Source: Patescibacteria group bacterium (lineage in GTDB: Bacteria > Patescibacteriota > Microgenomatia > 2-02-FULL-39-11). Taken from it: a DNA stretch of 64,000 bases. This document shows positions 23,071 to 45,381 of the stretch, one piece after another (position 1 is the first letter of the stretch; every line of letters begins with the position of its first letter). The stretch covers positions 73,273 through 137,272 of the forward strand of contig JAMCUI010000004.1 of the NCBI GenBank assembly GCA_023379265.1. The letters are read 5' to 3'. The translations under genes were made by a program, and so were the position numbers. The notes below the pieces were generated by a model. That model did not search any database. It was not told the origin of the DNA and worked only from the letters and a program-made list of their open reading frames with translations.

Positions 23071-23071
23071 T

Positions 23072-29451: not shown

Positions 29452-29572
29452 ATCTTAATCTTAATCAAACACAAATTTCAAATGAATAAATTTTAAAACA
29501 TTAATGCAATAATAAATTGGAAATTGATTAAAAATTAGAAATTATAAATTAAAAATTGTAAATTATAACTAT

Positions 29573-32056: not shown

Positions 32057-32105
32057 ATACCCAAACAGCTTCAATTGAACAATTTATTTACTCTATGAAA
32101 AATAA

Positions 32106-32351
32106 TTATTGGATTGGAGGTAGATTAAGATGATCTTCTATTCGTTCGTCACGTTTACGAAGATCCAGATATTCGGTATCAAAAAACTCAGCAATTATAC
32201 TAACATCTTTACGTATTTTCGTATTGTCTTTTTTAATTATTTTTACCTCTGAATTCAATACTTGTAAATCCCTCTTGATGGGGTGGAGCTCTTCCTTGAT
32301 AAATTTCATTAAGGAATTTCTTAAAGACAGAATATCAATTTTTGTCAGCAT
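32106..32351 (-). CDS. small coiled-coil protein, paralog of 44546..44809
   Basis: 81 aa; shares MLTK.DL start and DFFD.EYLD.R.R.ERIE.HLNL.P.Q end with the 87-aa paralog. Confidence 0.55.
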   Translation of the reverse strand: MLTKIDILSLRNSLMKFIKEELHPIKRDLQVLNSEVKIIKKDNTKIRKDVSIIAEFFDTEYLDLRKRDERIEDHLNLPPIQ

Positions 32352-32388
32352 ATAACGACATATTAGGCTATGAAATAAATACTGTCAA
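32352..32388 (-). promoter_or_regulatory. sigma70-type promoter TTGACA-17-TAATAT, ending 8 nt before the ATG (leaderless or near-leaderless transcript)
   Basis: Reverse complement of 32360-32365 = TAATAT, of 32383-32388 = TTGACA, spacer 17. Confidence 0.55.
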
Positions 32389-32513
32389 CAACAAACACTC
32401 ATTATAACCCTATAACAAAACTATGACTTTATCATATATTCTACTATTTAATTATGGCTTTATGATATAAATATAAAAAAATCAATACTTTATTACCTCT
32501 TATTTAGTCAAGA

Positions 32514-32542
32514 TTGACAATCCTATAATTTAGTGGTATAGT
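32514..32542 (+). promoter_or_regulatory. sigma70-type promoter TTGACA-17-TATAGT reading rightward into a 640-nt non-coding leader
   Basis: Read directly. Confidence 0.4.
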
Positions 32543-32680
32543 TCGCGTCACGTTTCAGAAAAGCTTATTATTGTAGTATAAAATACAAAATATGCAGACA
32601 TCCGGAAAAATAAAATTTAACTTCCTGTTTTCCATAAAAAGAATTTTTGTCGTTCTTTTTATCTAAGTCAGGGAGTTTTT

Positions 32681-32775
32681 TGTGGCAAAACTAAACTCCC
32701 AAACTGAAGAAAAAGGGAGTTTTTTGTGGCAAAACTAAACTCCCAAACTGAAGAAAAAGGGAGTTTTTTGTGAGA
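32681..32775. repeat. Tandem repeat, ~44-bp unit x ~2.5; each unit contains a hairpin gggagtttt...aaactccc
   Basis: gggagttttttgtggcaaaactaaactcccaaactgaagaaaaa repeated without spacers. Confidence 0.85.
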
Positions 32776-33179
32776 AGTGAAACGACGAATCTGTTTGTGA
32801 AGGACTACCGGCTTTATTAAGATTTTGGTTAAAGGTAAATATTCTGCCCAAGATTTTTTGTCTTGGGTTTTTTTGCACTTTAACAAAAAGTGTCCCGTAT
32901 CTTTTTGTGACGGTTACACAATTTGCGTGTATTTATGTCTAAAAAGAGAGGAACACTTATCTTCCTGTGTTTAGAAAGTAACTTTTCCTCGCTTTGTTTC
33001 CCCGGACGTAACCGGCATTTTGGGCCTATAAATTGATGGACTCAAAATGACGGTTACGTTCATTATCTTTCATCGCAGAAACCAATTCACGCAGTAAAGG
33101 AGGAAAAGCACACAACAATCAAACAATCGTTATCCATCGAGATCGAAAAAATCGTATGTATGCCAAATGGAGGTAAACC

Positions 33180-34007
33180 ATGGCAAAGAAAGAAAAACCC
33201 ACCAACCACACGAAATGGTTCTGGTGGTTCTGGTTCCTGTTCTGCATCGTGGTCCTTGGCGGCATGGGACTCTGGGAGATCGCAAACCTCATCTTTTCGA
33301 AAAACGGCATTCAAGACATAGTGTTTGGAATGTCCGCCAACGACGACTTTGCGAATCTCCTGGGCTGGAGCGGCGCGGTCTTCTTCAGTTTCAACGAATT
33401 CCTGCCGTTCCTGGTCCTACTACTGCCCCCCGTGCGCAAGTACTTTGACAAGTGGTACAAGTGGGCGGCGATCATTGCCCTCTCCATCGTGCTCGGGTGG
33501 ATTCCCGACATCGGCAGCACGTATCTCGACATTTCGAGCCACACCGAGTACTGGAGCACGTTGGGACAGAACAAACTCATGACGACCGAGATGGTGATGG
33601 GGACCAAAATCCTCTTCAGCATCATCCTCGCCAACATGGAGCCGCTCATCGGCTTGAACATGATCCTCATCTCCGCACTATGGGAGAAGATGCATCATCT
33701 CGACGGCGATACTGTCGAGCCGCTTGAAGAACTCGAAGAGCTGATGCCCATTCTCGCAAAACTCGTCGAGGACGAGGAACTTGACGAAGAAGATGAAACA
33801 TTCATCAAGGGCGTGCTCGGCAAAGGCGAAGACGATGAACTCACAGCCAAAGATTTGAAGAAACTCCCCGGTAAGATCGAGGGCATCGCGGAAGCGGCTG
33901 AAAGCGCCAACGAGGGAGTCGAAAAACTCGTCGAACACCTCAAGGAAAAAGAGGAAGAAGAAGGCGACGAAGAGGACGACGAGGACAACGAAGACGAAGA
34001 GGATTAA
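33180..34007 (+). CDS. hypothetical multi-TM membrane protein with poly-acidic C-terminal tail
   Basis: Strong SD GGAGGT; hydrophobic segments; C-terminus EEEGDEEDDEDNEDEED; GC-rich. Confidence 0.5.
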   Translation: MAKKEKPTNHTKWFWWFWFLFCIVVLGGMGLWEIANLIFSKNGIQDIVFGMSANDDFANLLGWSGAVFFSFNEFLPFLVLLLPPVRKYFDKWYKWAAIIALSIVLGWIPDIGSTYLDISSHTEYWSTLGQNKLMTTEMVMGTKILFSIILANMEPLIGLNMILISALWEKMHHLDGDTVEPLEELEELMPILAKLVEDEELDEEDETFIKGVLGKGEDDELTAKDLKKLPGKIEGIAEAAESANEGVEKLVEHLKEKEEEEGDEEDDEDNEDEED

Positions 34008-34305
34008 CGTCTCTCTCTGCGCCTTTTGGGCGCGTCATGCCAAACACAGGAAGAGCGGGGGGCTGAAGAAAGCTTCAAAGAAGATGCACCGGCACAATAT
34101 GTGCAGGTTTGAACACCGTAACAGGTGCATCTATCTTGATTCTTTTCTCAGTCCCCCGTTTTTCCATTTCAGTATTTGTCCTGGGACAAGATGAATTTTT
34201 CGTTTTTACCGAGGACAAATATGGACAAATCTGTTCTCAATTTTTCTCTGCCAGACAGCCGGTAAAAGCTCCGGTTTTTTCTGGTGGGAAAAAGCTCTTT
34301 AACAG

Positions 34306-34425
34306 TTGAATGATAACGGATAAATGGTTATATGGAGTAGTTCGTATCCTTCAAATTCGTTTGGCGCGAGAGAAAGAGAAGCCAATTTCTGGTTGACTTT
34401 TCTTTTTCTCAAGCGTCAGATGAAA
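34306..34425 (+). promoter_or_regulatory. Repeat family A copy 1: conserved ttgaatgataacgga box, long imperfect hairpin (gcgagagaaagagaag/cttttctttttctcaagcg), conserved cgtcagatgaa, then SD
   Basis: Three copies share identical flanks; see copies at 35160 and 36958. Confidence 0.75.
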
Positions 34426-34451
34426 ATCGCAAAAAGAAAGGAAGGTCTGCC

Positions 34452-34910
34452 ATGTACATTTGCGGATGGGAAGAATTCGGTACACTTCCCTACAAGGACC
34501 AGGCAGAGATATTACGCGTGATAAATCAACAGGAAAGTATAAGTGTCTATGGCGGAATGAATGAGTTTTTCGAACTTGTTGAAAGGCTGATACCACAACA
34601 CCTGGAGTGGGTCGAGACGTATTGCAGCAACGCCCAAACTTTCAACAAAATAAAAAGAAGATACGATCTTGAGGAAATCGAGGCAATGCTGGAAGGATTG
34701 ATCCCTCCCGCAAATCCCGCACTCATGCCACCGCCAAAACCAAAACCCATGCCTGTATATACTCCTGTTGTTAAGAAGAGAGTTCACAAAACTTCCAAAC
34801 CCAGCCGTCATCGGATTCACCGATTGCGAAAGAGCAAAAATCGCAAGAAGAAATCCTGGATAGGAAGGATTGTGGGGAAAGGAAAAAAATTCCTTTCATC
34901 TTTCTTTTGA
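34452..34910 (+). CDS. hypothetical protein with Pro-rich middle and highly basic C-terminus
   Basis: SD AAGGAAGG; intact 152-aa ORF; no recognisable domain. Confidence 0.45.
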   Translation: MYICGWEEFGTLPYKDQAEILRVINQQESISVYGGMNEFFELVERLIPQHLEWVETYCSNAQTFNKIKRRYDLEEIEAMLEGLIPPANPALMPPPKPKPMPVYTPVVKKRVHKTSKPSRHRIHRLRKSKNRKKKSWIGRIVGKGKKFLSSFF

Positions 34911-35025
34911 AAACCGTTATCGTTCCCAGCTTGCATATTGGGTTTCTGCCCGAAGAGGGTGCTGGACGCCTGGTCCATCACAAAAATTCAAACCCTCTAA
35001 ATTGCACGTCTTGTCCTTAAATTTT

Positions 35026-35150
35026 TTGAGGACTGGACCTGACAGACAACATCTGTTGTCTGGAAATGATTATGGACTATATTTTTGAAATAAGTTCTTC
35101 AATATAGCCTCACAAATTGCGTGGGGTTTATTTTGATGGAATTTATCGCT
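35026..35150 (+). repeat. Repeat family B/C copy 1: gaggactggacc, hairpin cagacaacatctgttgtctg, gattatgga, then G/C hairpin + T-run
   Basis: Aligns with 36841-36957 and 39455-39590. Confidence 0.7.
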
Positions 35151-35159
35151 CTTTAACAG

Positions 35160-35263
35160 TTGAATGATAACGGAAATTATTCTCCTTCTGTTTCGTCTGG
35201 CGTGAGAGAATCAGTACCTAAACCACTCACTTGGGTTCTGTTTCTCTCAACCGCCAGATGAAG
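35160..35263 (+). promoter_or_regulatory. Repeat family A copy 2
   Basis: ttgaatgataacgga ... gcgtgagagaatcagtaccta / gggttctgtttctctcaaccgccagatgaag. Confidence 0.75.
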
Positions 35264-35394
35264 TAAATCCAAATCAGAAAGGAGATGGTAAAAGCAAAAA
35301 AAACTAATCGGCGCAAGAGAATGTACTGTAGTATCCGGAAGACAAAACCAAAAACCAACATGTTTTCCGGTATCTCTGATCGGAGGAAAAGATC

Positions 35395-36141
35395 ATGAAA
35401 GTGAAAGTATTTCTTGCAACGCAACTTGACGCCTCGCAAAGAAAAGCATTGTACGACGCGGTAGTCAAGTTCGCAAAGGACTTGGATCTCGAATCGTTCG
35501 AGGACATGTCCAAGTTCCATGAGTACATGGGCAATGCCGTTGACGACAAGATCGCAGGCGCTGTCAAAGGGACAATCACCACGGTCAAGAAATTGGAACT
35601 CTTGGTTGAAGCCGCAGAAGATAACTGGCAGCCGGAAGAGAAAACCGCGCCCGAAAAGCAGGAACCCAAATCGTCCGCGTCACCCACGCGCACAGCGGCA
35701 AAAGACCGCGCGGGGCGGCAACGGCGGATCGTGTTTCTCGTCGCAGCGGCGGCGGTCGTCCTGGTCGTCGTCTGCATCGGCATTGTCTTCTCGGGAGTTC
35801 TCGGTGGCGGAACCAGCAGCGCGACCAGCACGCTCACGCCAGCCGCACTCACGCCAATGTCAAACGCAGCGCCGAAAACTCCGGCTTCCAGCGGCTTGAA
35901 AATTCAGTCGGCACCAACCCCTCGCGGATTCTGCGAGCCGGGCACCAAAGTGCCGGCGGGACTGCCGCTCTACCGGATCACTTCGCCGGTAAACTCTGCC
36001 GTTCCCACGTGGGGCTTGACCGGCGGAAAAACCACCGACAACCAGACTTTCACAACCGGTTGGCAATCGGCTGAAAACGGCACAGTACGCATGTGCGCCG
36101 TGTCCAACAGCCCGTACGCAGTCCGTATTCCGGTGAAATAG
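35395..36141 (+). CDS. hypothetical protein with central TM helix and Ser/Thr/Pro-rich extracellular region
   Basis: SD GGAGG; TM segment IVFLVAAAAVVLVVVCIGIVF; GC-rich. Confidence 0.45.
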   Translation: MKVKVFLATQLDASQRKALYDAVVKFAKDLDLESFEDMSKFHEYMGNAVDDKIAGAVKGTITTVKKLELLVEAAEDNWQPEEKTAPEKQEPKSSASPTRTAAKDRAGRQRRIVFLVAAAAVVLVVVCIGIVFSGVLGGGTSSATSTLTPAALTPMSNAAPKTPASSGLKIQSAPTPRGFCEPGTKVPAGLPLYRITSPVNSAVPTWGLTGGKTTDNQTFTTGWQSAENGTVRMCAVSNSPYAVRIPVK

Positions 36142-36150
36142 GAGAAGAAC

Positions 36151-36588
36151 ATGACAACGCAAATCTTGCGAAAGAGAAAGACGTGGCTCGATGGGCACCC
36201 GCGCGCAAAGGCGTTCTGGCAACAAGTCCAACGCCACTGGCGGGTCGGCTCAAGCATCTTTGCTCTGGCGATCATCGCGTGGATTGGTGTCATGTACATC
36301 GCGGTTCCCATGGCTCACTTTGCGACGATCAGCGTGCCCAACCCCAACGACACCGCGTGTTCACTCGGAAACACCACGAACTCTGTGGTGTTCATGAAAT
36401 TTACTCCGAGCGGTACATTGCGTATCCACGGTAAGGTCGGCGCGAACCGTCTGGACTGGAACGAACCATTAGCACCCCTTGGCTATACTTGGACTAGCAA
36501 CAACATCCTGCCATGGGTCGGCTATTGGGAGCCGAACACCATCAAACCATGCACTGAAGCGCAAACTGCAATGACCGGCGGGCACTAG
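36151..36588 (+). CDS. hypothetical membrane-anchored protein
   Basis: SD AGGAG 10 nt after previous stop (operon with 35395 gene); TM helix SSIFALAIIAWIGVMYIAV. Confidence 0.45.
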   Translation: MTTQILRKRKTWLDGHPRAKAFWQQVQRHWRVGSSIFALAIIAWIGVMYIAVPMAHFATISVPNPNDTACSLGNTTNSVVFMKFTPSGTLRIHGKVGANRLDWNEPLAPLGYTWTSNNILPWVGYWEPNTIKPCTEAQTAMTGGH

Positions 36589-36840
36589 CCGCCAAAAGTG
36601 TATGCCGCGAGCAACTCGCCCGGGGCATACATTTGGACTCATCTTTCCGTTATTCTATCAACGATGTAGGGGTCTTGCGGATTTCCGCAGGGAAACAAAG
36701 ACAGAGAGACAAAAGAGGATATCATACTTTTTTGTTGGATCCGGTGTCTACACTGGATATCAACCACCCTCTTTACTTTTCTGTCTCCCCTAATTTCCAA
36801 GGAGATAAAAAGGTTTTGTCTTTTTGGATGTTCAGATAAT

Positions 36841-36957
36841 TGGACTTTTTCAAATTGTCTGAAAAAAAGATTATGGAATTTATGAAAGTATACTGTTCCA
36901 CGAGTTAACCCCTTTATGCGGGGTTATTTCTAGTGGGATGGATATGCACCTTAAAAA
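36841..36957 (+). repeat. Repeat family B/C copy 2 (5' part truncated)
   Basis: ttgtctgaaaaaaagattatggaatttatgaa ... aaccccttt atgcggggttatttct ... tgcaccttaaaaa. Confidence 0.7.
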
Positions 36958-37095
36958 TTGAATGATAACGGAATAATCACCTTCCCTTTCACTTTCATTT
37001 GGCGCGAGAGAACCAGCACCTAATTTCATTCGTGATACTAAATACGTAATACGTAATACAAATTTAGGTTCTGGTTTTCTCAAGCGTCAGATGAA
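36958..37095 (+). promoter_or_regulatory. Repeat family A copy 3 (17-bp stem gagagaaccagcaccta / taggttctggttttctc with 45-nt loop)
   Basis: Read directly. Confidence 0.75.
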
Positions 37096-37132
37096 AAAAC
37101 CAAAATCAAATATACGAAAGGAAGGTGCAATC

Positions 37133-39313
37133 ATGACAAAGTTAGAATTGCTAAAGTACCTCCGAAGAACAAACAGGTCACGGAAGTTTTACGAATTACT
37201 CACTAAATACCAAAACAATCTGTTTTTCAGGTTGAGAGGATTTAGTAGTGATTCGTTTCGACTCTACCTGAAGTTTGTCGGAGAGGCAAATTTAGCAAGA
37301 ACCATCGGAGACGTCAACACGACTTCACTCCGCCGCGTCTATCGCGTCCTCAAGAAAAGGTACGGGGATGAGGATGAATTGGAAGAGGATGATGGTCTAA
37401 CCATCAATATGAGTAAAGTACTTACAGTCGCGATTCTGATCGTGATTGGACTCGTAGTTCTGATGGGTCTCCCGGCGATTGGGGAAATCTCTTCCCAACT
37501 CGGGATACAGCTGGAGAAGGTGGCTGCGTCGATACCAACAACTCAACCGCAACCGCCAACCCTGGCACCAACACCCATCCCTCCCACCAAAGCTCCCCCT
37601 CTTCCCCCGCCCCCGACAGCGACACCTCAACCGCCTCCTCCGACGGTTGTAGTGGAGATGACAGCAACAGAAGCAGCTCCAGCCACTGACTGCGGCAATG
37701 AACTTTCAGCACAGGAATGTCAGAGGCTGCATGGTATGGTGGCTGCATACGGGAAGAAATGGACAGATGGGGATCCTAGTACCGGCTTGCCGCTTGGGCC
37801 GATGATGGTGGACAGGTATCTGCACGTGTGGAACCGGGATTGGACAGCTACGCAACAGGGGTTTAACGACATCCTGGGTCCACAAGGTGGGAACAGTACA
37901 CAAGCCACCAGTTCGGCAAGTTCTCCGGCGAAAAAATCGACACCGTATCCTACCATCGGCTACATTCAACCGATGACAATCACGGTGCAGGACAATAGCG
38001 GTCCGGCAGAAAATCCGACTCCCACAGCAACTCCATCTCCGCAAGCACAAGGAGGATGCAAGTCTGACGACTGGGGTTGTCAGTTCGGGAACTGGCTGCA
38101 AAGCCAATTTACGCCGATGACGTCGACACCCCAGGCACAGACGCAAACTAGCGGAAGTTGGTGCGTGAAGAAAGTGGATTGGAACGCCATGCAGGCGTGG
38201 TACTCCCACGGTACGGGAGACTTCACCGCAAATCTGCGTGACGTGAACCAGGGAGTGCTTCTGGACCGGGGTTTCAGCTGGACTGGTTTATATTGGAAAC
38301 CGGTCAATCTGTGCGGTAACGCCCAGATTATCGGCAACCCGCCGGCAAACCAATCGCAGGGGCCGCAAGCGCAAACACAACCCACACAGAGAACTCCGCT
38401 ACCCGGGTGGATGGCAAGCGCAGGAAGCTGGGGCTGTTGGGCATCTCCTTGGGGTGTAAGTCTGGATGCACAGATAGTAGATGGGTATTGGACCAATGAC
38501 GGTTACGTACTCATTTACTCACCACAGCGGGGCAAGAACGAGGTGGAAAAGGATCCCAACAAGATCCGGCAAGGAAAATGTCCGCCTACGCCAACGCCCA
38601 TGCCCACCAGTACGCCGCTTCCCCAACCGACTGCTCCACCACAGCGGATCGGGATCTACTGCATTTCAAGTGCAAGCGCCACAGGAGCAAGCGTCATGCT
38701 GACGCCAAACTCAGGCACAGGCGTAAACGTGACGCAGCAATTCCCGGTATACGAGGGATTCCGCTGGAACGGCCGATACCAGGAACCGGATGGCAGCAAA
38801 CCGATGTGCAACAGCTTGCCACAGTTTGCGCCGCCGGCACCTACCCAGATGACGGCACCGTTGCCCTCACCAACAGCATCCGTCTGCGTCCAATCAGTAT
38901 CGGACACGACATTGTATCTTCTCTGGAACAGCAGCCACGTCACTAAAAGCGTGACTGATGCTTCCGCAGGGCTGAGCCCTTACGGATTCAGCTGGACAAA
39001 CGGCAGATGGGTGACAAACACAAACGTCAAATACTGTGCCGGACCTCCCGGACCAACTACTGCTCCAACAGTCAGCGGTCCGCCCGGACCTACTGCAGTA
39101 CCAGCGCCTGTAAGGACTGCGTGTTTCCTTAAAGTTGACGGACAGAACATCTATATGCGGACTTTCGTCAACGGGATTCAATCCCCGCATGGTGATGTAT
39201 CCGTCAACCGGTACACGCAATCAGCCCAGATGGACTCGTACGGTTTTCAATGGAATGTCCCATGGTGGGGCGATCCTGCGTACGACCAGGGCACAGTACC
39301 TTCATGTAACTAA
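37133..39313 (+). CDS. large secreted/anchored hypothetical protein: N-terminal TM/signal anchor, Pro-rich linkers, Trp- and Cys-rich repeats
   Basis: SD AAGGAAGG before ATG 37133 (ORF track start 37091 lies inside the conserved leader); PQPPTLAPTPIPPTKAPPLPPPPT linker; many W/C residues. Confidence 0.5.
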   Translation: MTKLELLKYLRRTNRSRKFYELLTKYQNNLFFRLRGFSSDSFRLYLKFVGEANLARTIGDVNTTSLRRVYRVLKKRYGDEDELEEDDGLTINMSKVLTVAILIVIGLVVLMGLPAIGEISSQLGIQLEKVAASIPTTQPQPPTLAPTPIPPTKAPPLPPPPTATPQPPPPTVVVEMTATEAAPATDCGNELSAQECQRLHGMVAAYGKKWTDGDPSTGLPLGPMMVDRYLHVWNRDWTATQQGFNDILGPQGGNSTQATSSASSPAKKSTPYPTIGYIQPMTITVQDNSGPAENPTPTATPSPQAQGGCKSDDWGCQFGNWLQSQFTPMTSTPQAQTQTSGSWCVKKVDWNAMQAWYSHGTGDFTANLRDVNQGVLLDRGFSWTGLYWKPVNLCGNAQIIGNPPANQSQGPQAQTQPTQRTPLPGWMASAGSWGCWASPWGVSLDAQIVDGYWTNDGYVLIYSPQRGKNEVEKDPNKIRQGKCPPTPTPMPTSTPLPQPTAPPQRIGIYCISSASATGASVMLTPNSGTGVNVTQQFPVYEGFRWNGRYQEPDGSKPMCNSLPQFAPPAPTQMTAPLPSPTASVCVQSVSDTTLYLLWNSSHVTKSVTDASAGLSPYGFSWTNGRWVTNTNVKYCAGPPGPTTAPTVSGPPGPTAVPAPVRTACFLKVDGQNIYMRTFVNGIQSPHGDVSVNRYTQSAQMDSYGFQWNVPWWGDPAYDQGTVPSCN

Positions 39314-39454
39314 TCAGAATGATGAAGCTCTGAACTCCGTTGTCATTCCCAGCCATAGTGGGAGCAGTTTTTATACTCTCCCGACAGGGGGGCTGGATGT
39401 TCTCATCCGTCAAACCCAAAATACCCCTAAATGCTCGTTTGGTCCCCAAAAGTA

Positions 39455-39590
39455 TTTGAGGACTGGACCAGGCAGACAAAGAAATTTGTCTGCAAAAAAG
39501 ATTATGGAACTTATGAAGAAATTCTGTTTCACTATTTAGCCCCTTATTGCGGGGTTGTTTCTGGTGGAATAGAAATTGCACCTTAAAAAG
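39455..39590 (+). repeat. Repeat family B/C copy 3 (perfect hairpin cagacaaagaaatttgtctg; ccccttattgcggggttgtttct; gcaccttaaaaa)
   Basis: Read directly. Confidence 0.7.
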
Positions 39591-39799
39591 TTCATCCATT
39601 CAAGAAAAAAGGACAGGTTGATTATAAAAAGTCAGCTGCCGCATGGAGGGTATAAAGTTTTGTATCTTCCAAACGGCAGCTGAATGAACAAATCGTATCG
39701 TAAACCAACAAATTCAACTCATAAAGGAGGTAAACGCGACAAGTTCAAAATCAGGAAATCCGTAATCAACCATGTTCAATCTCAAAACTGGAGGACAGT

Positions 39800-40708
39800 A
39801 TGTCGAAACGAAACGTTCGCAAACTGACGATCGTCGACGCAATTCTCTTGCTGACGGTTGTCCTTGTTCTTGCGGCCTGTGGGTCTCCGCCGCCCCCCAC
39901 TGCCACGCCGCAAAACCCCATCCTGAAGATTGTCACTGAAGCCATCAAAATTGACAATACCTCTTCAGATGTGGTGCTGGCTGATCTGTATCAGGCGCCG
40001 CTCAAAGACGTCCTGGACCTGTCAAACGTGCTTCCGCAATACAGCACGCAGTTTGACGCGCAGGCAAAGCAAACGCCACAGTCGCAGCAACAGGACCAGG
40101 CAATCCAGGCGGCAAAAGATCAGCAAAAGCAAACGCTTGACTATCTGAACAGTTGCTACATCGGCATGGTCAAGTTTCGGCGGTATCGAGCCGATGGCAA
40201 AACGGCTTTGACCGACGGGCACAGCATCCCGGCGTCCGGAAAGTACAAGGTCTTTTGTCCGACGGAACAAGATCGGCAGGCAGGAATGGCTCCCAACCAG
40301 CTTGCGCTCATCATGAGTGTCTGGTGGAATAAGTCCATGTCGGCGTGGTACTACTCGCCGCATGGCATCAGACCTGCGTACTTCGGCGTGCAGTTGGGAA
40401 CGGTTGAAACCGACCCCACCTTCAATCCCAACCAAGCGCCTCCGGCAAACCTCGGTACCCAATGGTGGGTGGGCACCGACTGTAACTTTCTCGATCTGGG
40501 CAGCAATCAAAGGATGCCGTGCAGCACCGACTGGGTACAACAGGGGATGAGCGTGGCATACGCCGCCAATCCGACACCGGGTGTCGTGGGCGTGCAAGCC
40601 CATATCCTGGTGCTCGCAAACGGCAAGAGCGGCATCCGCTACGTCTCGGCAGCAAGCATGGGCGACAACAGCCCAATGCCGCCGATTACGGGTAACGTCG
40701 AAAAGTAG
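39800..40708 (+). CDS. hypothetical lipoprotein
   Basis: Signal peptide + lipobox LVLAAC; SD GGAGG; GC-rich. Confidence 0.55.
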   Translation: MSKRNVRKLTIVDAILLLTVVLVLAACGSPPPPTATPQNPILKIVTEAIKIDNTSSDVVLADLYQAPLKDVLDLSNVLPQYSTQFDAQAKQTPQSQQQDQAIQAAKDQQKQTLDYLNSCYIGMVKFRRYRADGKTALTDGHSIPASGKYKVFCPTEQDRQAGMAPNQLALIMSVWWNKSMSAWYYSPHGIRPAYFGVQLGTVETDPTFNPNQAPPANLGTQWWVGTDCNFLDLGSNQRMPCSTDWVQQGMSVAYAANPTPGVVGVQAHILVLANGKSGIRYVSAASMGDNSPMPPITGNVEK

Positions 40709-40737
40709 AGATTTCTGACAAACAAGGAGGAAAAACC

Positions 40738-41181
40738 ATGCCAGACAAAAACAGCAAGCGCAAAAACAAAAAGCGCTTACAACCACCGCAGGAAGTTGAT
40801 TGGACTAAGGTCGCGCTGGACGGCGTCGGCATCGTGATCATCGCGGTCTTCATGATACTAGGAATGCAGGATTTGGCTGCGATGCTCATCTGGGGATTTG
40901 CCGGATACTTGCTTGCGCGAAGCGACAGACGCAACAAACTGGTATCGGGAATCGTGGGATTTGCCGTCGCGTGTGTGATCTTTGCGATTGATCCCATCAT
41001 CCCCCTCCAGACCTGGACGGTACGATTTATAGAGTTCGCCCAGTGCGTCGCGCTACCGCTTCTGATCGCCGCCTTCATCTGGCTCACTCTGTCAGTCTGG
41101 AAAGTCGTGGCGCAAAAGGTCAAAACCCTCATCAATCAACTCAACGAAGCGACGCGAGAGAAGACACCGCCCCAGGCGTAA
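40738..41181 (+). CDS. hypothetical small membrane protein (3-4 TM)
   Basis: SD AAGGAGG 30 nt after previous stop (operon). Confidence 0.45.
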   Translation: MPDKNSKRKNKKRLQPPQEVDWTKVALDGVGIVIIAVFMILGMQDLAAMLIWGFAGYLLARSDRRNKLVSGIVGFAVACVIFAIDPIIPLQTWTVRFIEFAQCVALPLLIAAFIWLTLSVWKVVAQKVKTLINQLNEATREKTPPQA

Positions 41182-41201
41182 AATCTCGAATGGAATGAAC
41201 T

Positions 41202-41279
41202 ATCGGGGACACTGCCACGTTTGGCAGGACTGTGACGCTTCATGCGTCCTCTCTTTGCCAAACGTGTCCCCCCGATTTT
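41202..41279 (+). terminator. Long imperfect hairpin (atcggggacac...gtgtccccccgat with nested acgtttggca/tgccaaacgt) followed by TTTT
   Basis: Read directly. Confidence 0.55.
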
Positions 41280-41535
41280 CCAGCTTTGAAAGAAATTTCA
41301 GAGCTGAGAATACGGTCTTTGCACCTTAAAATATGAAAGAAATCAAAATTACGCAGCGGGAATACCCGAGGGTGCGGCGTGGAAGATTAATATTGTCGAC
41401 AAAAACAATATCCGTTTTCCGCGTCGCGCCGTCGGGGAAAATCAAAAGTATGTCATCAGGAGGTGAAACAGAAAAACGAACACTCTATCGATTCAACCAA
41501 GTACATGAGATCAATCGAAAGGAGAATCTACGAAA

Positions 41536-42435
41536 ATGAGTAGACGAAGCAGAAAAAGCGGCGGTAGCATCTTCACTATCCGCAATGCCATTGCCGTCGC
41601 AATCGTGCTGGTCGTCGTGTTCATGCTCTTTGGGGCGGGTCAAGCCTTCACGATGGCTCTCCTCCACAACGCGACGAACCAGTCAGTCGGTGCCAGCACC
41701 ACCAAGGGCGAAATTGGACCTGCTCCTACGCAGACACCACTGAATCCGGTCACGCAAGCACAAAGGTCAATCGGCGAACTGCCGGGTCAGGTGATCCAGA
41801 AGGTCACTGCCAGACCTACGGCGACACCTATGGTCAAAGCCGATCCGTACGCGTACTTCCAATCTGTCGCGGACGACGACTTTACCATTTTGACTGTGGC
41901 GGCGAAAATGGAGCCGTGCGATCCCAATCACCCTGAGAACGGTGGTTTTACAGTCATCGCCACGCGCAACCAAGGCGGTTTAGACGGTGCGTTAAACGGC
42001 AGAACCTACACGCTGAAAGTCTGGGGCGTCGTACGCGCCGGTGTGGACATGAAGGGATTTAATTTATCAAACATCGAGCTGGTTGGCGACCACCTCGTCA
42101 TTCATGTCCCCAAAGGACACTTGGAGCAGCCGACATACTATCAGGATTGCACCTACGAAAAGACGAACAACGGCGCGTTCGTCATGCTGGGAAAGATCTG
42201 GTGGAACCTCACCGACTTGCCCGACATGAACGAAGTAAGTTTGCGGCGCGAGGCAATGAAGAAAGCCGACAACGCCATCGAGAGTGCGGGCTACAACATG
42301 GGACTCGACACGCTTGCCCAGCAGAAGGTGTTTGACCGCATCGTGGACGTTGTCAAAGCAGTGGACGGGGCGGCGCATCGAGAGACCCTCCCGATCATCC
42401 CAGACTACCAGACGAACCAACCCCCGCAGTACTGA
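41536..42435 (+). CDS. hypothetical N-terminally anchored extracytoplasmic protein
   Basis: SD AAGGAG; TM helix AIAVAIVLVVVFMLFGAG after basic N-terminus. Confidence 0.45.
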   Translation: MSRRSRKSGGSIFTIRNAIAVAIVLVVVFMLFGAGQAFTMALLHNATNQSVGASTTKGEIGPAPTQTPLNPVTQAQRSIGELPGQVIQKVTARPTATPMVKADPYAYFQSVADDDFTILTVAAKMEPCDPNHPENGGFTVIATRNQGGLDGALNGRTYTLKVWGVVRAGVDMKGFNLSNIELVGDHLVIHVPKGHLEQPTYYQDCTYEKTNNGAFVMLGKIWWNLTDLPDMNEVSLRREAMKKADNAIESAGYNMGLDTLAQQKVFDRIVDVVKAVDGAAHRETLPIIPDYQTNQPPQY

Positions 42436-42480
42436 CGCGAAACGATCTATGCCAACGAGTTTGTCTCCCCCGACGGCGCG

Positions 42481-42786
42481 ATGGGCATGGAAAGGAAGGT
42501 GATCTTGAAAAAAAGTTTGACAGTGAAGGGACTGTTTGCCGCCATCATACTCCTCCTCTGCGTCGCGTACTTCTTTAGCCCGATCAATTGGGCTGATGAC
42601 GTCATCCCGGTCCTGGGATTTGCGGATGACTTCGTCGACATCGCGATCGCGGTGCTGGATGTGATGTGGTTTTTCGCGCAGGCGAGAAAACTGAGAGAAT
42701 CGGGCGCAAACCCGGTTGCTGCTCTAGAGAGTTCTGCGCGAATTCCGAAGAAAAAACGGAGAAAAAAGACAGTCCATCGCGCGTGA
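42481..42786 (+). CDS. DUF1232 (YkvA-like) small membrane protein
   Basis: ADDVIPVLGFADDFVDIAIAVLD motif characteristic of DUF1232. Confidence 0.55.
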   Translation: MGMERKVILKKSLTVKGLFAAIILLLCVAYFFSPINWADDVIPVLGFADDFVDIAIAVLDVMWFFAQARKLRESGANPVAALESSARIPKKKRRKKTVHRA

Positions 42787-42791
42787 ACGAA

Positions 42792-42820
42792 ATCTTGAAC
42801 CGAACATCTCGGTTCAAGAT
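42792..42820. other. Perfect 12-bp stem hairpin (atcttgaaccga/tcggttcaagat, loop acat) just after the DUF1232 stop
   Basis: Read directly. Confidence 0.7.
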
Positions 42821-43244
42821 GCAATGATTTCTTTCATAAAATCAATAAAACCATGAGCGGATCCTGCGTTAGACAACAGGACCATGGTCTGGGTGGAGAC
42901 GAAGAAGAGATGAAATTTGGCACGCGCGCCAACTCCGAAGCTTTACCGCTTCCTCATCTCCTTTTCCCCCTCCGTTTTACCCAGTTTCCACTCCCTTGGA
43001 TATAATAAATCTATATTACATCCAAAGGAGTGGATTTTTAGAATAGTTCCATTACCCCGGAAGTAAACAAAAATTTAACTCCGGAGGAATGGAACGGTAA
43101 GTTTTTCCATTGCACATTGAAAACTTATGGGGAAAAAATGCAGTGGGGTTATAAGGTTTTAACCAGTTTGGTTACAGCCTTTCATCCCCATTGCATTCAT
43201 CGTGAAATAAAAACCAAAATCATTCGTGTCAAAAAGGAGGAACC

Positions 43245-44252
43245 ATGAACACGAACATGAACGTAGACTGGCGGGAAATCCTGGAACAAACTCTCGAATT
43301 CCTGGATGGAATCGCCGAATGGATGGAAGAACGGTTGGGCTGGAAAGGGCTTGCAGTAAGCGCAATCGTAGCGCTCATCTGGCTGGTCCTCCTGACCCTT
43401 GTAGTCAAGATCTTCGCGCCGGGCTGGTCGGGCGCGATCATCTGGCTTACCCTGCTGGTCGGACTCCCGGCAAGCGTCTTCACCGGCATGGGCTGGAAAG
43501 CAGGCACGGTCTTGCCGGCGCTGGTGAGCATCGCGCACTTTTTGCGCACTCACTGGAAGGCGATTCTGGTCATCGGCTGGCCCGTCATCGCCTTCATCGT
43601 CTGGTGGTTTATTGCTGTGTTTATCAATGACACTGCAGATGCGCTTATTTACTGCGCGGTAGAAGGAGTGTTAATTTTCCTCCTTTGGAACCACCGACAT
43701 CCGCTGAACGTCACGAAAAAAAGTGAAAGACGCGACGTGTACAAACTGCCTGCAAGCTGGCTGCCCGGAGTGAAAGAACTGATCCTTTCGCTCATCGTCA
43801 TGTGCGTCTGGCTGGCAATCGTCATGGGTCTTGGAATCGCTCTTGGAACTAGCGTAGGATCCTGGATCCCGATTGCCATCGCGGTAGTCGCTTATCTAGT
43901 CAGCGGCTATTTCCTGCAAAAATACGTCAGGAAGGAGTTACCAGACGTCAACCTGTTCTGGACCCGGGTCATCGTGGATTTCGGTGAAAAGATGCTTATC
44001 ATCAACACAGAATTCCTTGGAATGGGTGAAAGACGGACGGTTCGTTTCAAGGACTTCAGCGAGGTGAAACATCAAGCAAAGGGCATCGGTGGCTTCTTCG
44101 TCAATAGCATCCACTTCTCACTAGAAATCATCGGTGGAGGTCCGCTCGTACTTCCCGGTCTGCGTTACAAAGGCGCAAAGTACGTGACGGCAAATGGTCA
44201 GTCGTACACAGGCGAGGATGCCTTGATTGCGTTGATGGACGAAACAAAATAA
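43245..44252 (+). CDS. hypothetical polytopic membrane protein
   Basis: SD AAGGAGG; multiple hydrophobic helices. Confidence 0.45.
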   Translation: MNTNMNVDWREILEQTLEFLDGIAEWMEERLGWKGLAVSAIVALIWLVLLTLVVKIFAPGWSGAIIWLTLLVGLPASVFTGMGWKAGTVLPALVSIAHFLRTHWKAILVIGWPVIAFIVWWFIAVFINDTADALIYCAVEGVLIFLLWNHRHPLNVTKKSERRDVYKLPASWLPGVKELILSLIVMCVWLAIVMGLGIALGTSVGSWIPIAIAVVAYLVSGYFLQKYVRKELPDVNLFWTRVIVDFGEKMLIINTEFLGMGERRTVRFKDFSEVKHQAKGIGGFFVNSIHFSLEIIGGGPLVLPGLRYKGAKYVTANGQSYTGEDALIALMDETK

Positions 44253-44409
44253 TTTCACCGCACAGGTTTTCGGGGGAGCACCCCAAGTCTCTTGAGGTGC
44301 TCCACCTCACACACTCTCCCCAAAAATCAACCTGCGTCCATCATCCTGGACAGGAATTATCCTGTCCGTGATTTGTGTACGCAGGATGATATTTAAGTTT
44401 CAAACCCGT

Positions 44410-44467
44410 TTGAGGAAATCCGGATTTTTGCATCCGGAATTTCATAGGACGGGTTTTTTAGTTGGAA
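44410..44467 (+). terminator. Stem aaacccgt/acgggttt enclosing inner hairpin tccgga-N8-tccgga, followed by T6
   Basis: Read directly. Confidence 0.5.
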
Positions 44468-44545
44468 AAAAATTTGGGGTTCCATGCTTGGAAAAGGTGA
44501 AGAAAAATGGTTAAATCCTTAGAGCGGGATGTGATTGGTATATAT

Positions 44546-44809
44546 TTACTGAAGCGGTGAGAGATTGAGATGTTTTTCGATACGCTCTACTCGTTGACGA
44601 AAATCCAAATATTCTTTATCAAAGAAATCTGTAATCGTACCTGTATCTTTTCTTATTTTGGCAATATCCAGTTTAATAGGTTTCAGATCATCTTTGGTAA
44701 CAAAACTTCTCAAATCATCCCTTCTCACAAAAGATTTCGCATCATCTTTGGTTAGAGCAACTTCCTTGATTGACTGCTTAATTTTTTGCAGATCTGTTTT
44801 TGTGAGCAT
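44546..44809 (-). CDS. small coiled-coil protein, paralog of 32106..32351
   Basis: 87 aa; conserved N- and C-terminal blocks with the 81-aa paralog. Confidence 0.55.
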   Translation of the reverse strand: MLTKTDLQKIKQSIKEVALTKDDAKSFVRRDDLRSFVTKDDLKPIKLDIAKIRKDTGTITDFFDKEYLDFRQRVERIEKHLNLSPLQ

Positions 44810-44847
44810 ATAACGACAATATTATGATAAGAAAAAATTGCTGTCAA
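44810..44847 (-). promoter_or_regulatory. sigma70-type promoter TTGACA-17-TAATAT, ending 9 nt before ATG; near-identical to the promoter at 32352-32388
   Basis: Reverse complement of 44819-44824 = TAATAT; of 44842-44847 = TTGACA. Confidence 0.55.
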
Positions 44848-44935
44848 TAACAACAGGACTATCTTAGATTTTTTGGGAGAACAAATAAAATTCTTAAATT
44901 GATAAATTATTCCAAAAGGAGCATAATAAGTCACC

Positions 44936-45361
44936 ATGAGTCCTGAGGGAAAAAGAAGATCAAGCATCCCCAGAGATCTGAGAGATGTTTACCAACAAAA
45001 AGAACCTCCGCTTGTTGAAATCCAGCCCGAAACTCCTTTGGAAAAAGAATTTGAACAACCGCCTGACATACCTTTTCAACACGTAGTAAAAGCTTTTGAA
45101 AAAGTCGTTTTCCAGGTAGGCCACAGGAAAGTAAAAAGGAGAGATGACTTGCGGCTTCCCAGACGAAATGTTGTTGTCGCACTGAGACAACCCAATGATC
45201 CCGATCAAACCATCTTTGCAAGAATCACTTCGGGAGCTGCCGACTGGATAGGAAGTATACCCACAGTTGGGATACATGGAGTAAGGCGCGTAGGACACGA
45301 AAAACTTCCCAAAAAGGCCAGGCAGGCAGCAAGACAGAAAAGAAAAATAGGTTTAAGGTAG
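44936..45361 (+). CDS. hypothetical basic protein
   Basis: Intact 141-aa ORF, no domain recognised. Confidence 0.3.
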   Translation: MSPEGKRRSSIPRDLRDVYQQKEPPLVEIQPETPLEKEFEQPPDIPFQHVVKAFEKVVFQVGHRKVKRRDDLRLPRRNVVVALRQPNDPDQTIFARITSGAADWIGSIPTVGIHGVRRVGHEKLPKKARQAARQKRKIGLR

Positions 45362-45381
45362 TCAAATATTTCGAAGAATGA

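Follow-up and report, generated by a model that had tools for sequence, protein, structure and literature searches.

A strain-variable, GC-rich island of predicted envelope-protein genes between a VirD4-like ATPase gene and tsf in Candidatus Gottesmanbacteria

The window, as we call the whole 64-kb stretch of DNA analysed, derives from the tiny genome of a Candidatus Gottesmanbacteria host (CPR). Between a VirD4-like ATPase gene and tsf it carries a GC-rich segment that is absent from related species and replaced by a different one in a sister strain; its ten genes, all singletons, are arranged in six units with a shared leader. We think it probable that this segment is a strain-variable 'flexible' genomic island of the replacement type, composed of envelope-protein cassettes that come from a pool within Gottesmanbacteria.

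In related species the order frr, VirD4-like ATPase, tsf, rpsB is retained, with 0.1–5 kb where the window has 19.6 kb. The synteny of frr, the ATPase gene and tsf was found in four other Gottesmanbacteria (L009, L011, L012 and L016), and the island is absent from the syntenic site in each of them. The earlier note on this DNA had recognized the GC-rich island, but the insertion at the site is larger: compared with other species, the total extra DNA is about 19.6 kb (32.1–51.7 kb). The site contains the following features around the island:

29573–32056, plus strand: VirD4/TrwB-like coupling-type ATPase, DUF8128 N-domain and P-loop (Pfam TrwB_AAD_bind, T4SS-DNA_transf, TraG-D_C)
32106–32351, minus strand: 81-aa coiled-coil small protein, GC 31%, left copy of a paralogous pair
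32352–32825, plus strand: AT-rich conserved flank common to both strains, ending at break point 32825/32826
44546–44809, minus strand: 87-aa paralogue of the 81-aa gene, GC 34.5%, convergent with the island, own promoter at 44847–44819
44810–45514, no strand: right border interval of the strain-variable segment, with contig breaks at 44950, 45215 and 45514
45897–51499, plus strand: species-level insertion, common to strains, absent at the site in other species

The ATPase gene belongs to the conserved backbone; it bounds the hot spot on the left and lies outside the island. We rejected it as evidence of a conjugative element, because it is core and syntenic and its mild GC excess is present in all relatives too; the GC-elevated, TraD/VirD4-like neighbor reported earlier is as described but no part of a mobile element. 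The bracketing of the island by paralogous small genes was correctly noted, the 81-aa and 87-aa proteins being 46% identical. A promoter scan placed a sigma-70-like promoter at 32388–32360, 8 nt from the ATG of the 81-aa gene, and in L011 a 75% identical homologue of the 81-aa protein adjoins a GC-rich cassette. The AT-rich left flank contains a near-consensus promoter facing the island (32514–32542) and an exact 44-nt tandem repeat (32670–32757), of which strain B has one copy. The species-level insertion encodes proteins of 635 (coiled-coil), 215, 153 (minus strand) and 711 aa (host-like in composition), for none of which was a family assignment obtained.

Strain B (L002/L023), whose flanks are 99.5% identical to those of the window, diverges exactly after base 32825 and continues, within a single 21.8-kb contig, into an island of different genes with 53–55% GC and SD sites, whose products include an acidic, a multi-TM and a Band_7 protein. 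Contigs of five same-species assemblies end or diverge at 32.5–32.8 kb: at the left break point L001 ends at 32825 and L021 begins at 32796, and sister MAG contigs end at 32604 and 45514. The strain-variable segment begins at 32826, and its right end falls between 44950 and 45514. The right border interval holds a 141-aa ORF (44936–45361, plus strand) and part of an 89-aa ORF (45382–45651, minus strand). In the window's own sample, the contig of the left flank overlaps the first contig of the island by just 30 nt, and contiguity at this junction rests on the MAG assembler and indirect arguments. On the right, an independent Logan contig (L007) joins five island genes to the low-GC, Gottesmanbacteria-type 87-aa gene. 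The island genes are not conserved syntenically in relatives, and the proposal that the segment is foreign to the conserved backbone is borne out by its absence from other Gottesmanbacteria, its replacement in the sister strain and its alien composition.

Base composition is not uniform across the window. In eleven 1-kb windows at 33–44 kb the mean G+C is 50.8% (range 43.9–56.8), compared with 42.2% (sd 1.8, maximum 45.7) in 41 background windows (z = 4.8; Mann-Whitney p = 6e-7). The tetranucleotide correlation with background drops from 0.91–0.97 to 0.34–0.44 at 36–44 kb. GC3 is 0.64–0.73 in eight island genes and about 0.37–0.47 (~0.42) in host genes; the exceptions are the 740/726-aa gene (0.55) and the 152-aa gene (0.46), whose codon use is host-like. 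Windowed GC confirms the G+C jump originally placed at about 33.1–44.3 kb. The flanks, described at that time as 30–40% G+C, are in fact at about 42%, and the lower range applies only to two AT-rich spacers (32057–33079, 31.6%; 44546–45896, 37%). Codon use (RSCU) of the island does not follow that of the host (r = -0.18); it correlates with the strain B island (0.80), the L011 gene (0.64) and an L017 patch (0.71), although correlation among GC3-rich gene sets arises partly for trivial reasons. A strong SD had been claimed for every island gene. Nine of the ten have an SD core of 5 nt or longer, as do 9 of the 44 remaining genes (Fisher p = 7e-5). The coding parts were probably gained horizontally, since they are unlike the host in composition, codon use and translation signals.

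The ten island ORFs are real genes, called alike by NCBI and Logan (locus tags M1271_00900–00950). They are arranged as follows:

33180–34007, plus strand: unit 1, 275-aa polytopic membrane protein, 4 predicted TM segments, GC3 0.73, SD GGAGGT
34452–34910, plus strand: unit 2, 152-aa protein, no TM segment, basic C-terminus, GC3 0.46
35395–36588, plus strand: unit 3, 248-aa (35395–36141) and 145-aa (36151–36588) proteins
37133–39313, plus strand: unit 4, 726-aa predicted surface 'stalk' protein
39800–41181, plus strand: unit 5, 302-aa predicted lipoprotein (39800–40708) and 147-aa protein (40738–41181)
41536–44252, plus strand: unit 6, 299-aa (41536–42435), 101-aa (42481–42786) and 335-aa (43245–44252) proteins

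Localization was predicted using a simple hydropathy scan (Kyte-Doolittle) and sequence features. TM segments, a signal anchor or a lipobox were detected in 9 of 10 products; the claim that all ten are extracytoplasmic or membrane-bound thus holds except for the 152-aa protein. Of the other individual features listed in the earlier note, the lipobox was found in the 302-aa protein, the acidic tail in the 275-aa protein, and the Pro-rich linkers and Trp/Cys repeats in the 726-aa protein. As it also stated, no enzymatic domain was recognized in the island products, the only matches being DUF1232 and a sub-threshold DUF4230.

The 275-aa protein has a long, acidic C-terminal tail ending ...EEDDEDNEDEED. 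Both proteins of unit 3 are predicted to be single-pass and N-in, and the ectodomain of the 145-aa protein ends in a Cys-bracketed Trp module resembling those of the 726-aa protein. The latter is most likely translated from 37133, within a 740-aa ORF that begins at 37091. It is predicted to consist of an N-terminal cytoplasmic domain, a TM segment (96–114), a Pro-rich spacer and five Cys-to-Cys beta modules of 50–60 aa with the motif GFxW..W..C, separated by Pro/Thr/Gln linkers. In unit 5 the 302-aa protein carries the lipobox LAAC and the 147-aa protein three predicted TM segments. Unit 6 encodes a signal-anchored, DUF4230-like protein (299 aa), a DUF1232 membrane protein (101 aa) and a protein with five predicted TM segments (335 aa), the last preceded by a highly structured spacer of 458 nt. 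A 68-aa ORF at 41333–41539 is probably leader sequence and not a gene.

Each transcription unit opens with a hairpin and an 11-nt box, GCWCYTTAAMA, followed by a long 5' stem-loop, an arrangement that is a new observation here:

32846–32885, plus strand: first hairpin and T-run (32846–32868) and first box (32875–32885), opening unit 1
34257–34451, plus strand: leader copy 1, hairpin and T-run, box 34294–34304, 29-bp stem-loop; covariance-model match 34292–34428
35106–35394, plus strand: leader copy 2, hairpin, box 35148–35158, conserved stem-loop 35146–35266
36906–37132, plus strand: leader copy 3, hairpin, box 36946–36956, stem-loop 36944–37099
39537–39799, plus strand: leader copy 4, hairpin, box 39578–39588, different stem-loop of ~24 bp; weak model match 39576–39688
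41234–41535, plus strand: leader copy 5, hairpin 41234–41248, box 41321–41331, stem-loop of ~30 bp; weak model match 41319–41441
44343–44456, plus strand: terminal hairpins closing the array, 44347–44368 and nested 44402–44456, then a T-run

All six matches to the box in the 64-kb window lie inside the island, on the coding strand and at unit starts (0.48 expected). Hairpins with T-runs do separate the units, as had been claimed (34257, 35106, 36906, 39537, 41234 and 44347), and another lies 5' of the first gene at 32846, but their region-wide number does not exceed that of shuffled sequence (23 vs 23.0). Every island spacer contains a hairpin of 60–110 nt, conserved in structure and variable in sequence. 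The 29-bp stem shows compensatory changes and G-U pairs, and its sense strand scores far better in the covariance model. Box and leader also precede GC-rich genes in strain B, in another Gottesmanbacteria species (L011, NC groundwater) and in L033, the latter two being Gottesmanbacteria assemblies from unrelated studies. In a metagenome contig the element stands between a toxin-antitoxin pair, the gene of a small protein and a GC-rich ORF. The box probably belongs to a promoter or operator, and the stem-loop may act as RNA; in L033 the box is antisense to adjacent low-GC genes, a poor fit with a simple promoter role.

The ten proteins occur only in this MAG and sample, and for four of them (335, 302, 726 and 299 aa) deep searches of 5.8 billion clusters or 1.8 billion representatives gave no relatives. 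These searches identify no donor; the high-GC donor suggested earlier is a conjecture. Because the AT-rich leader is common to strains and species, the immediate source was most likely a pool of genes in circulation within the Gottesmanbacteria lineage, and not direct import from a distant phylum. A pool of this kind does not readily account for the persistence of GC-rich coding regions beside AT-rich leaders.

We propose that the 12 kb comprise six self-contained expression units in an insertion hot spot between the core ATPase gene and tsf. Each unit consists of an upstream hairpin/terminator, the box, a long structured 5' leader, a canonical SD and one to three GC-rich ORFs, whose products are predicted to be membrane-anchored, lipid-anchored or polytopic envelope proteins; the beta modules of the stalk protein would be small and disulfide-closed. 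Strains differ in the set of cassettes found at this one nucleotide position, and the likely route of exchange is recombination in the conserved flanks, replacing the island. If so, the cassettes may provide strain-specific decoration of the cell surface, serving in host-cell attachment and/or phage escape.

The segment could instead be what is left of an integrated mobile element (ICE, integrative plasmid or prophage), with the ATPase as coupling protein and the membrane proteins acting in the mating pore, entry exclusion or lysogenic conversion. Membrane proteins dominate its content, its composition is atypical, and the adjoining TrwB/VirD4-family ATPase matches phage family phrog_5156 (function unknown; E 1e-61). 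We regard this as quite improbable: the ATPase is in its syntenic place in species that have no island, a scan of viral contigs for the leader motif gave chance matches only, and the window yielded no mobility gene, integrase, VirB4, relaxase, replication, capsid or terminase gene, other phage hallmark or integron feature, tRNA gene, att repeat or flanking direct repeat. It is highly unlikely that the island is an assembly or binning chimera, in which GC-rich contigs of another organism were joined to a CPR scaffold. The sharp composition switch, the break in all independent assemblies at 32.5–32.8 kb and the short contig overlap would fit such an error, but two alleles at one site would also be expected to branch the assembly graph, and strain B has a similar GC-rich continuation. 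Furthermore, L007 links the island to the 87-aa gene, whose paralogue and orthologues are Gottesmanbacteria genes, and the leader in the AT-rich spacers recurs in L011 and L033. We give just as little credence to a substrate or accessory module of the ATPase, which would recruit the island proteins by their acidic C-terminal tails and help to export or insert them. Acidic tails may resemble T4SS signals, the first product has a Glu/Asp-rich end in both islands (...EEDDEDNEDEED in the window, ...ATEEEEE in strain B), and in L011 and L017 the ATPase gene has GC-rich secreted-protein genes at a distance of 1–2 kb or less. However, the ATPase has no such neighbor in L012 and L016, no further T4SS component was found in the window, and the ordinary signal anchors or lipobox of most island proteins suit Sec.

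Unlikely, in our estimate, is a lineage-specific, integron-like system, in which hairpin, box and stem-loop serve as a recombination or capture signal and a recombinase shuffles GC-rich ORFan cassettes in and out of a fixed chromosomal platform of Gottesmanbacteria; the 81/87-aa genes or the 635-, 215- and 711-aa neighbors could then belong to the machinery. Within the window the element recurs only between cassettes, and it is also found beside cassettes of a second strain, a second species and a metagenome contig. The spacer hairpins fall in the size range of attC, ORFan cassettes with alien codon use are like those of chromosomal integrons, and homologues of the 81-aa gene adjoin such cassettes. 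On the other hand, the 64 kb yielded no tyrosine or serine recombinase, transposase or reverse transcriptase, the units carry SD sites and, probably, promoters of their own, and the G-U pairs and strand asymmetry of the stem favor a role as RNA. The box is not the crossover point, because the strains diverge 50 nt upstream of it and 20 nt before the first hairpin. Integron attC/attI sites differ in their inverted RYYYAAC...GTTRRRY cores, which are not present in the island elements, where the box never forms an inverted pair; the likeness proposed for hairpin, box and stem-loop is one of function.

The segment between about 33.1 and 44.3 kb stands apart from its surroundings in composition. 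G+C averages 50.8% in the island and reaches 56.8% (eleven one-kb windows, 33–44 kb), compared with a background mean of 42.2% (sd 1.8, maximum 45.7; 41 one-kb windows outside 29–52 kb; z = 4.8, Mann-Whitney p = 6e-7); the entire 64-kb window has 43.7%. The compositional jump described in the earlier note is therefore borne out, and it extends to GC3, relative synonymous codon usage (RSCU) and tetranucleotides. The same note had placed the flanks at 30–40% G+C, which is wrong: they are at about 42%, and the lower range is reached only in the AT-rich spacers at 32057–33079 and 44546–45896. The tetranucleotide correlation with the background drops from 0.91–0.97 to 0.34–0.44 at 36–44 kb. GC3 is 0.64–0.73 in eight of the ten island genes, 0.55 in the largest and 0.46 in the 152-aa gene, versus about 0.42 (~0.37–0.47) in host genes. 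Between the island and 29 host genes, RSCU shows no correlation (r = -0.18); the codon use of the 152-aa gene resembles that of the host. The island thus has the deviant composition and codon use by which genomic islands are recognized.

Comparison of strains shows that the segment is strain-variable. Using exact-protein look-ups, same-species contigs (99.5–100% DNA identity) were found in four sequencing runs and in a sister MAG; they end at window positions 32498, 32604 or 32825, or diverge at 32825. The 21.8-kb contig of SRR10267473 (L002/L023), which represents a second strain of the species, strain B, is 99.5% identical to the window through base 32825 and unrelated from there on. Its sequence beyond this point has 53–55% G+C and encodes three proteins: one of 104 aa that ends in EEEEE, one of 269 aa with multiple TM segments, and a Band_7 protein of 270 aa. 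These three genes have GGAGG-type sites and GC3 values of 0.59–0.63, and no similarity was found between them and the window's island genes. Near-identical strains carrying unrelated genes at one position is the hallmark of a replacement island. A second contig of the sister MAG ends at 45514 and is common with the window from there to beyond tsf. From these contig ends and divergence points, the strain-variable segment starts at 32826 and stops within 44950–45514; the left border is exact, and the right border lies in an interval that no strain B contig crosses.

We asked what occupies this site in related species. A query with the VirD4/TrwB-like ATPase (29573–32056, plus strand), using one genome per species, returned twelve loci, of which the closest are from Candidatus Gottesmanbacteria (78–92% protein identity). 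In the closest relatives the backbone reads rseP, frr, VirD4-like ATPase, tsf, rpsB, and this conserved order identifies the ATPase as a core, syntenic gene. The gap between ATPase and tsf measures ~15–140 bp in the relatives L016 and L012, 2.5 kb in L009, ~5 kb in L011 and 19.6 kb in the window. Syntenic conservation of the island among relatives would have spoken against a foreign origin; instead, the island is absent from the site in all four of these relatives, and its ten genes have no match in any ATPase-containing relative locus. Its presence is therefore patchy, as in genomic islands: absent in four relatives, replaced in strain B (L023) and composed of ten singletons. The earlier note had also pointed to the elevated GC of the adjoining ATPase. 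A mild excess over the surroundings is present, but it recurs in relatives, giving no sign of recent transfer.

Several other features of this neighborhood stand out. The ATPase of the window carries a Pro/Thr/Ser/Gln-rich, low-complexity C-terminal extension of ~100 aa (31740–32056), whereas most orthologues end near residue 722–729. Between rseP and frr lies a gene for a 550-aa DUF6909 protein (26717–28369; E 1e-188), another variable insertion, found in relatives L008 and L018 and missing from L009, L011 and L019. A 123-aa '23S rRNA intervening-sequence protein' (PF05635, the family to which the Avd proteins of diversity-generating retroelements belong) is wedged between frr and the ATPase gene. 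This gene (29080–29451) is flanked by 49-nt AT-rich inverted repeats at 29018–29066 and 29516–29564 and is missing from the frr–ATPase position in L009 and L011; a similar gene in the metagenome contig L033 (509–865) is flanked by GTTGTGAGTT-type inverted repeats. The gene and its repeats look like a small mobile cassette. On the other side of the island, 45897–51499 encodes proteins of 635 aa (coiled-coil), 215 aa, 153 aa (minus strand) and 711 aa with no family assignment. These genes are common to the strains and missing from the site in other species; a 33%-identical relative of the 711-aa protein is encoded elsewhere in L016. An 85-nt inverted repeat (94% identical, copies 11.7 kb apart), with one copy at the start of the 215-aa gene (47889–47973) and the other immediately upstream of the gene at 59711 (59627–59711), could mediate inversion. 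Farther upstream, 22231–25031 encodes the full enzyme set for proline biosynthesis (glutamate 5-kinase-like AA_kinase, glutamate-5-semialdehyde dehydrogenase and pyrroline-5-carboxylate reductase) adjoining an archaeal-type ProRS, with a short direct repeat of ~45 nt at 24732–24820. In the distant relative L017 (ATPase 52% identical, genome ~33–37% GC), a 2.5-kb patch of 58–65% GC lies 1 kb upstream of the ATPase gene (L017 6500–9000). It encodes two secreted Cys/Trp proteins with repeated W-x-P-x2-C-x-P-L modules, carries no box, and is a further GC-rich surface-protein insertion near the same core gene.

The ten island genes are also called by NCBI (locus tags M1271_00900–00950) and in an independent assembly, in agreement with the earlier gene count. 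For the largest, the most probable start is 37133, preceded by AAGGAAGGTG, which makes the protein 726 aa long. A simple hydropathy scan predicts TM segments in nine of the ten products, which can be grouped as follows.

Predicted classes of island products (hydropathy scan; lipoprotein candidate from its lipobox)
275, 147, 101 and 335 aa: polytopic membrane proteins, predicted (four)
248, 145, 726 and 299 aa: single-pass signal-anchor proteins, predicted (four)
302 aa: lipoprotein candidate, LAAC lipobox

The view that every product is membrane-bound or extracytoplasmic therefore holds, as a prediction, for nine proteins and fails for the 152-aa protein, which has no TM segment. The acidic tail, lipobox, Pro-rich linkers and Trp/Cys repeats described previously were all found, in the 275-, 302- and 726-aa proteins; the C-terminal tail of the 275-aa protein is Glu/Asp-rich. 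The 726-aa protein would be a modular stalk: its sequence predicts a cytoplasmic N-domain, a single TM segment, a Pro-rich spacer and then five Cys-to-Cys modules of 50–60 residues each, with the motif GFxW..W..C and Pro/Thr/Gln linkers between them. One Cys-to-Cys module of the same type is present in the 145-aa protein, and a search for fold relatives of the repeat module of the 726-aa protein detected none. Family scans (Pfam, NCBIfam, PHROGs, PADLOC) returned DUF1232 for the 101-aa protein, a sub-threshold DUF4230 for the 299-aa protein and otherwise noise, consistent with the earlier statement that there is no recognizable enzymatic domain. Taken together, the TM segments, the lipobox and the Cys-bracketed ectodomain modules predict that the island cargo is exposed in the envelope.

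Island and host genes also differ in their translation signals. A Shine-Dalgarno (SD) core of at least 5 nt precedes nine of the ten island genes, compared with 9 of the 44 other window genes (Fisher p = 7e-5), so that the strong SD site attributed to every island gene is there for all except one. In many host genes no SD site is present, and a -10-like hexamer takes its place (native starts at, for example, 9873, 25476, 32351, 44809, 49364 and 62171). Such a hexamer (at least 5/6 match), ending 5–12 nt before the start codon, was found in 13 of 44 host genes and in 0 of 10 island genes, a difference that amounts to no more than a trend (p = 0.095). This suggests that leaderless or very short-leader mRNAs are frequent in the host genome, unlike the long leaders of the island.

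These leaders are structured and shared. Repeat analysis revealed a ~130–200-nt module upstream of the genes at 34452, 35395 and 37133. It consists, in order, of a hairpin with a T-run, the 11-nt box GCWCYTTAAMA, a 29-bp stem-loop 50 nt on, with a variable loop of up to ~40 nt, and the SD site. In the consensus fold six pairs have both sides changed, and there are several G-U pairs. The covariance model, built from three copies, scores 125–140 bits on the sense strand, far above the 25–36 bits on the antisense strand, which speaks for a structured RNA in the 5' UTR. The 64 kb contain six copies of the box, all of them on the coding strand and inside the island; 0.48 occurrences are expected, and none of 100 shuffles reached six.

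Box starts in the window, one per transcription unit
32875, coding strand, box
34294, coding strand, box
35148, coding strand, box
36946, coding strand, box
39578, coding strand, box
41321, coding strand, box

In the remaining three leaders the stems differ and are equally long and stable (z = -4 to -7). If the box is read as a sigma-70 -35 element, a plausible -10 element follows at 15–18 nt downstream in only about half of the copies. Each unit probably has its own promoter, as argued by the terminator-like hairpins ahead of the units and by the conserved box. Just outside the island, a near-consensus sigma-70 promoter (TTGACA-17-TATAGT with TG) faces it within 32514–32876. It is followed by ~330 nt of ORF-free, strongly structured sequence (z = -4.6) ending at a hairpin at 32846–32868. 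An exact 44-nt tandem repeat at 32670–32757, each copy of which forms a GGGAGTTT...AAACTCCC hairpin, is present as one copy in strain B. The segment, for which Rfam gave no match, may be a small RNA gene with its 3' end at the island junction.

The leader recurs outside the window. In strain B it precedes the first island gene and appears again at the contig end (L023 13805 and 17149). In L011, a different species from a different study, it lies at 13504–13619 (E ~1e-4), upstream of a GC-rich (58%) gene for a secreted protein. In the metagenome contig L033 it is found three times. These matches establish hairpin, box, stem-loop, SD and GC-rich ORF as a recurring design in the lineage. The three box copies of L033 (1–3100), each preceded by a hairpin and antisense to low-GC genes, mark the boundaries between an 81-aa-gene homologue, a HicAB-like toxin-antitoxin pair, a small ORF and an SD-led GC-rich ORF, and the array adjoins a tRNA-like 3' fragment (GGTTCAAACCCGGGTC). 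A metagenome scan with the 81-aa family gave six loci, three with the box and a cassette-like layout (L033) and the rest without shared context; the small gene is therefore an unreliable marker of such islands. Viral contigs scanned with the extended box motif TTTTTGCACTTTAACAA gave nine chance matches, with neither a hairpin nor GC-rich sequence downstream.

Where do the island genes come from? All ten proteins are singletons at 90% identity among ~15 billion proteins; their only two sources are the window's MAG and the Logan contigs assembled from run SRR10278331, which are 100% identical to the window. Deep searches of the 335-, 302- and 299-aa proteins against 5.8 billion clusters, and a full HMMER search of 1.84 billion representatives with the 726-aa protein, returned only the query, and no donor taxon can be inferred from them. 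By composition, codon use and translation signals, the island coding sequences are foreign. RSCU of the island correlates with that of the strain B island (0.80), the L011 gene (0.64) and the 64%-GC patch of L017 (0.71), in part a trivial consequence of their common high GC3. The AT-rich, lineage-specific leader common to strains and species suggests that the genes came most immediately from a pool of cassettes that circulates within Gottesmanbacteria rather than by direct import from a distant high-GC phylum.

The usual signs of mobility were sought. There are no tRNA or tmRNA genes in the 64-kb window and no real Rfam families in 28–52.5 kb. The left-junction sequence is not repeated at the right side, and an 8–9-nt TGGTTAAA match at 32826 and 44508 is within chance. 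Scans with Pfam, NCBIfam and PHROGs, covering the island, the adjoining genes and most other unassigned window ORFs, found no integrase, transposase, relaxase, VirB4, reverse transcriptase or phage structural gene among the scanned ORFs. An integron or CALIN was rejected, there being no Phage_integrase or other recombinase match among the scanned ORFs and no attC cores (RYYYAAC/GTTRRRY); the spacer hairpin bases read TCAnCTGGCG...CGCCAGnTGA. The box is on one strand only, without an inverted partner, and the spacer hairpins lie 250–450 nt past the preceding stop codon, whereas attC sites directly follow the ORF. An ICE or type IV secretion locus was set aside: of its components the scans showed the coupling-type ATPase alone, and relatives without the island have that ATPase as a syntenic core gene. 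A prophage or its remnant was discarded, PHROGs giving only weak matches to families of unknown function and a marginal spanin-like match on a signal peptide; so was an anti-phage defense island, for which the only PADLOC matches in the island, marginal ones to PD-T4-6, fall where the 248-aa protein is of low complexity or forms a TM segment. A diversity-generating retroelement was likewise discarded: despite the Avd-family gene at 29080–29451, there is no RT domain among the scanned ORFs and no TR/VR-type repeat pair in 28–52.5 kb.

These observations most likely reflect a flexible genomic island of the replacement type, lodged in a hot spot that has the core ATPase gene on one side and tsf on the other. 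An assembly chimera is unlikely, and we give it a very slim chance. The contig L007 joins five island genes to the low-GC 87-aa gene, whose paralogue (the bracketing small genes noted earlier are indeed such a pair, 46% identical) and orthologues (75% in L011) are Gottesmanbacteria genes; the AT-rich island spacers carry the leader found in other studies' Gottesmanbacteria assemblies; and strain B shows the same kind of transition within one contig. The assembly breaks would be the expected outcome of a graph branch between two alleles. Equally improbable is that the island is a substrate module of the ATPase, whose products would be recognized through acidic tails, a reading for which the support is resemblance only. 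That a remnant mobile element uses the ATPase is also very unlikely: the ATPase is core, and hallmark genes are missing from the scanned ORFs.

Genuine recombination of cassettes, acting at the leader, would account for the integron-like layout. It has a small probability, since no recombinase was found in the scanned ORFs, the strain break point lies away from the box and the stem appears to be selected as RNA. Improbable too is an undescribed Gottesmanbacteria cassette system in a wider sense, in which GC-rich envelope ORFans tagged by the AT-rich hairpin/box/stem-loop leader would be installed at fixed platforms by a recombination machinery. The platform may be the position beside the VirD4-like ATPase, next to genes of the 81-aa family. 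Such a system would give strain-specific surfaces to an attachment-dependent organism; it would parallel integrons and variable surface loci in function, with homology to neither.

In the flexible-island reading, six autonomous expression units would furnish the envelope, within or at its surface, with proteins particular to the strain. The predicted products are a tall stalk protein of modular build, one lipoprotein, and several proteins each of two further kinds, signal-anchored with an ectodomain and polytopic. Exchange would proceed by recombination in the conserved flanks, and the role may be surface diversification for host attachment, phage evasion or both. Members of the CPR/Patescibacteria are believed to be attached to other cells in their way of life, and most of their surface proteins lack annotation; to our knowledge, host recognition and phage evasion in this group are largely unknown. 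The locus offers a concrete, testable case: one exact site at which near-identical strains carry wholly different predicted envelope sets. The structured leaders and strong SD sites of the island, set against host genes mostly without SD, provide a handle on foreign-gene expression, and other CPR genomes can be searched for such cassettes by means of the box and leader. If widespread, these cassettes would define a lineage-wide mechanism of surface diversification.

Replacement-type flexible, or 'metagenomic', islands, a concept of Rodriguez-Valera and colleagues, encode envelope structures in free-living bacteria and archaea. As in those islands, near-identical strains carry unrelated genes at one site, the products are envelope-exposed (here by prediction), the composition is atypical, metagenome assemblies break at the site, and mobility genes are not needed. 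Flexible islands, however, usually encode glycosyltransferases, O-antigen or S-layer functions and are usually lower in GC, whereas the window island consists of higher-GC ORFans with alien translation signals, in units that each carry a conserved lineage-specific leader. Classical genomic or pathogenicity islands, defined by the criteria of Hacker and Kaper, share the deviant GC and codon use, the restriction to some strains and the surface or secreted cargo (predicted here). They differ in having a tRNA or tmRNA target, flanking direct repeats and an integrase or transposase, none of which was found here.

Sedentary chromosomal integrons and CALINs are similar in that most of their cassettes are ORFans with foreign codon use, a repeated, species-typical hairpin element lies between the cassettes, and toxin-antitoxin cassettes occur, here in the related locus L033. 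The island departs from them in having no IntI among the scanned ORFs and no attC inverted cores, its own SD sites and probably its own promoters, a stem that looks selected at the RNA level, and a strain break point off the repeat. In the vsp, vlp and vsa loci of Mycoplasma, one paralogue family switches by inversion or slippage within one genome. These loci likewise belong to reduced-genome, host-dependent bacteria and cluster surface genes with a conserved 5' region before divergent coding sequence, but the window cassettes are mutually unrelated and vary between strains. The VARTIG locus of Thermococcales is also hypervariable and centered on a large multi-domain surface protein, with variable small genes downstream and a proposed role in cell–cell recognition or conflict (PMC8416519). 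In that account, VARTIG has recognizable Ig domains and recombines within a conserved gene (PMC8416519), whereas in the window whole unrelated genes are swapped. No account of islands like this one, in Gottesmanbacteria or elsewhere in the CPR, was found in the literature searched. The window island is thus of a familiar kind, a strain-variable envelope island; relative to that literature, it adds cassettes of higher-GC ORFans in a CPR genome, a split between host and island in translation-initiation signals, and a conserved leader that tags cassettes across strains and species.
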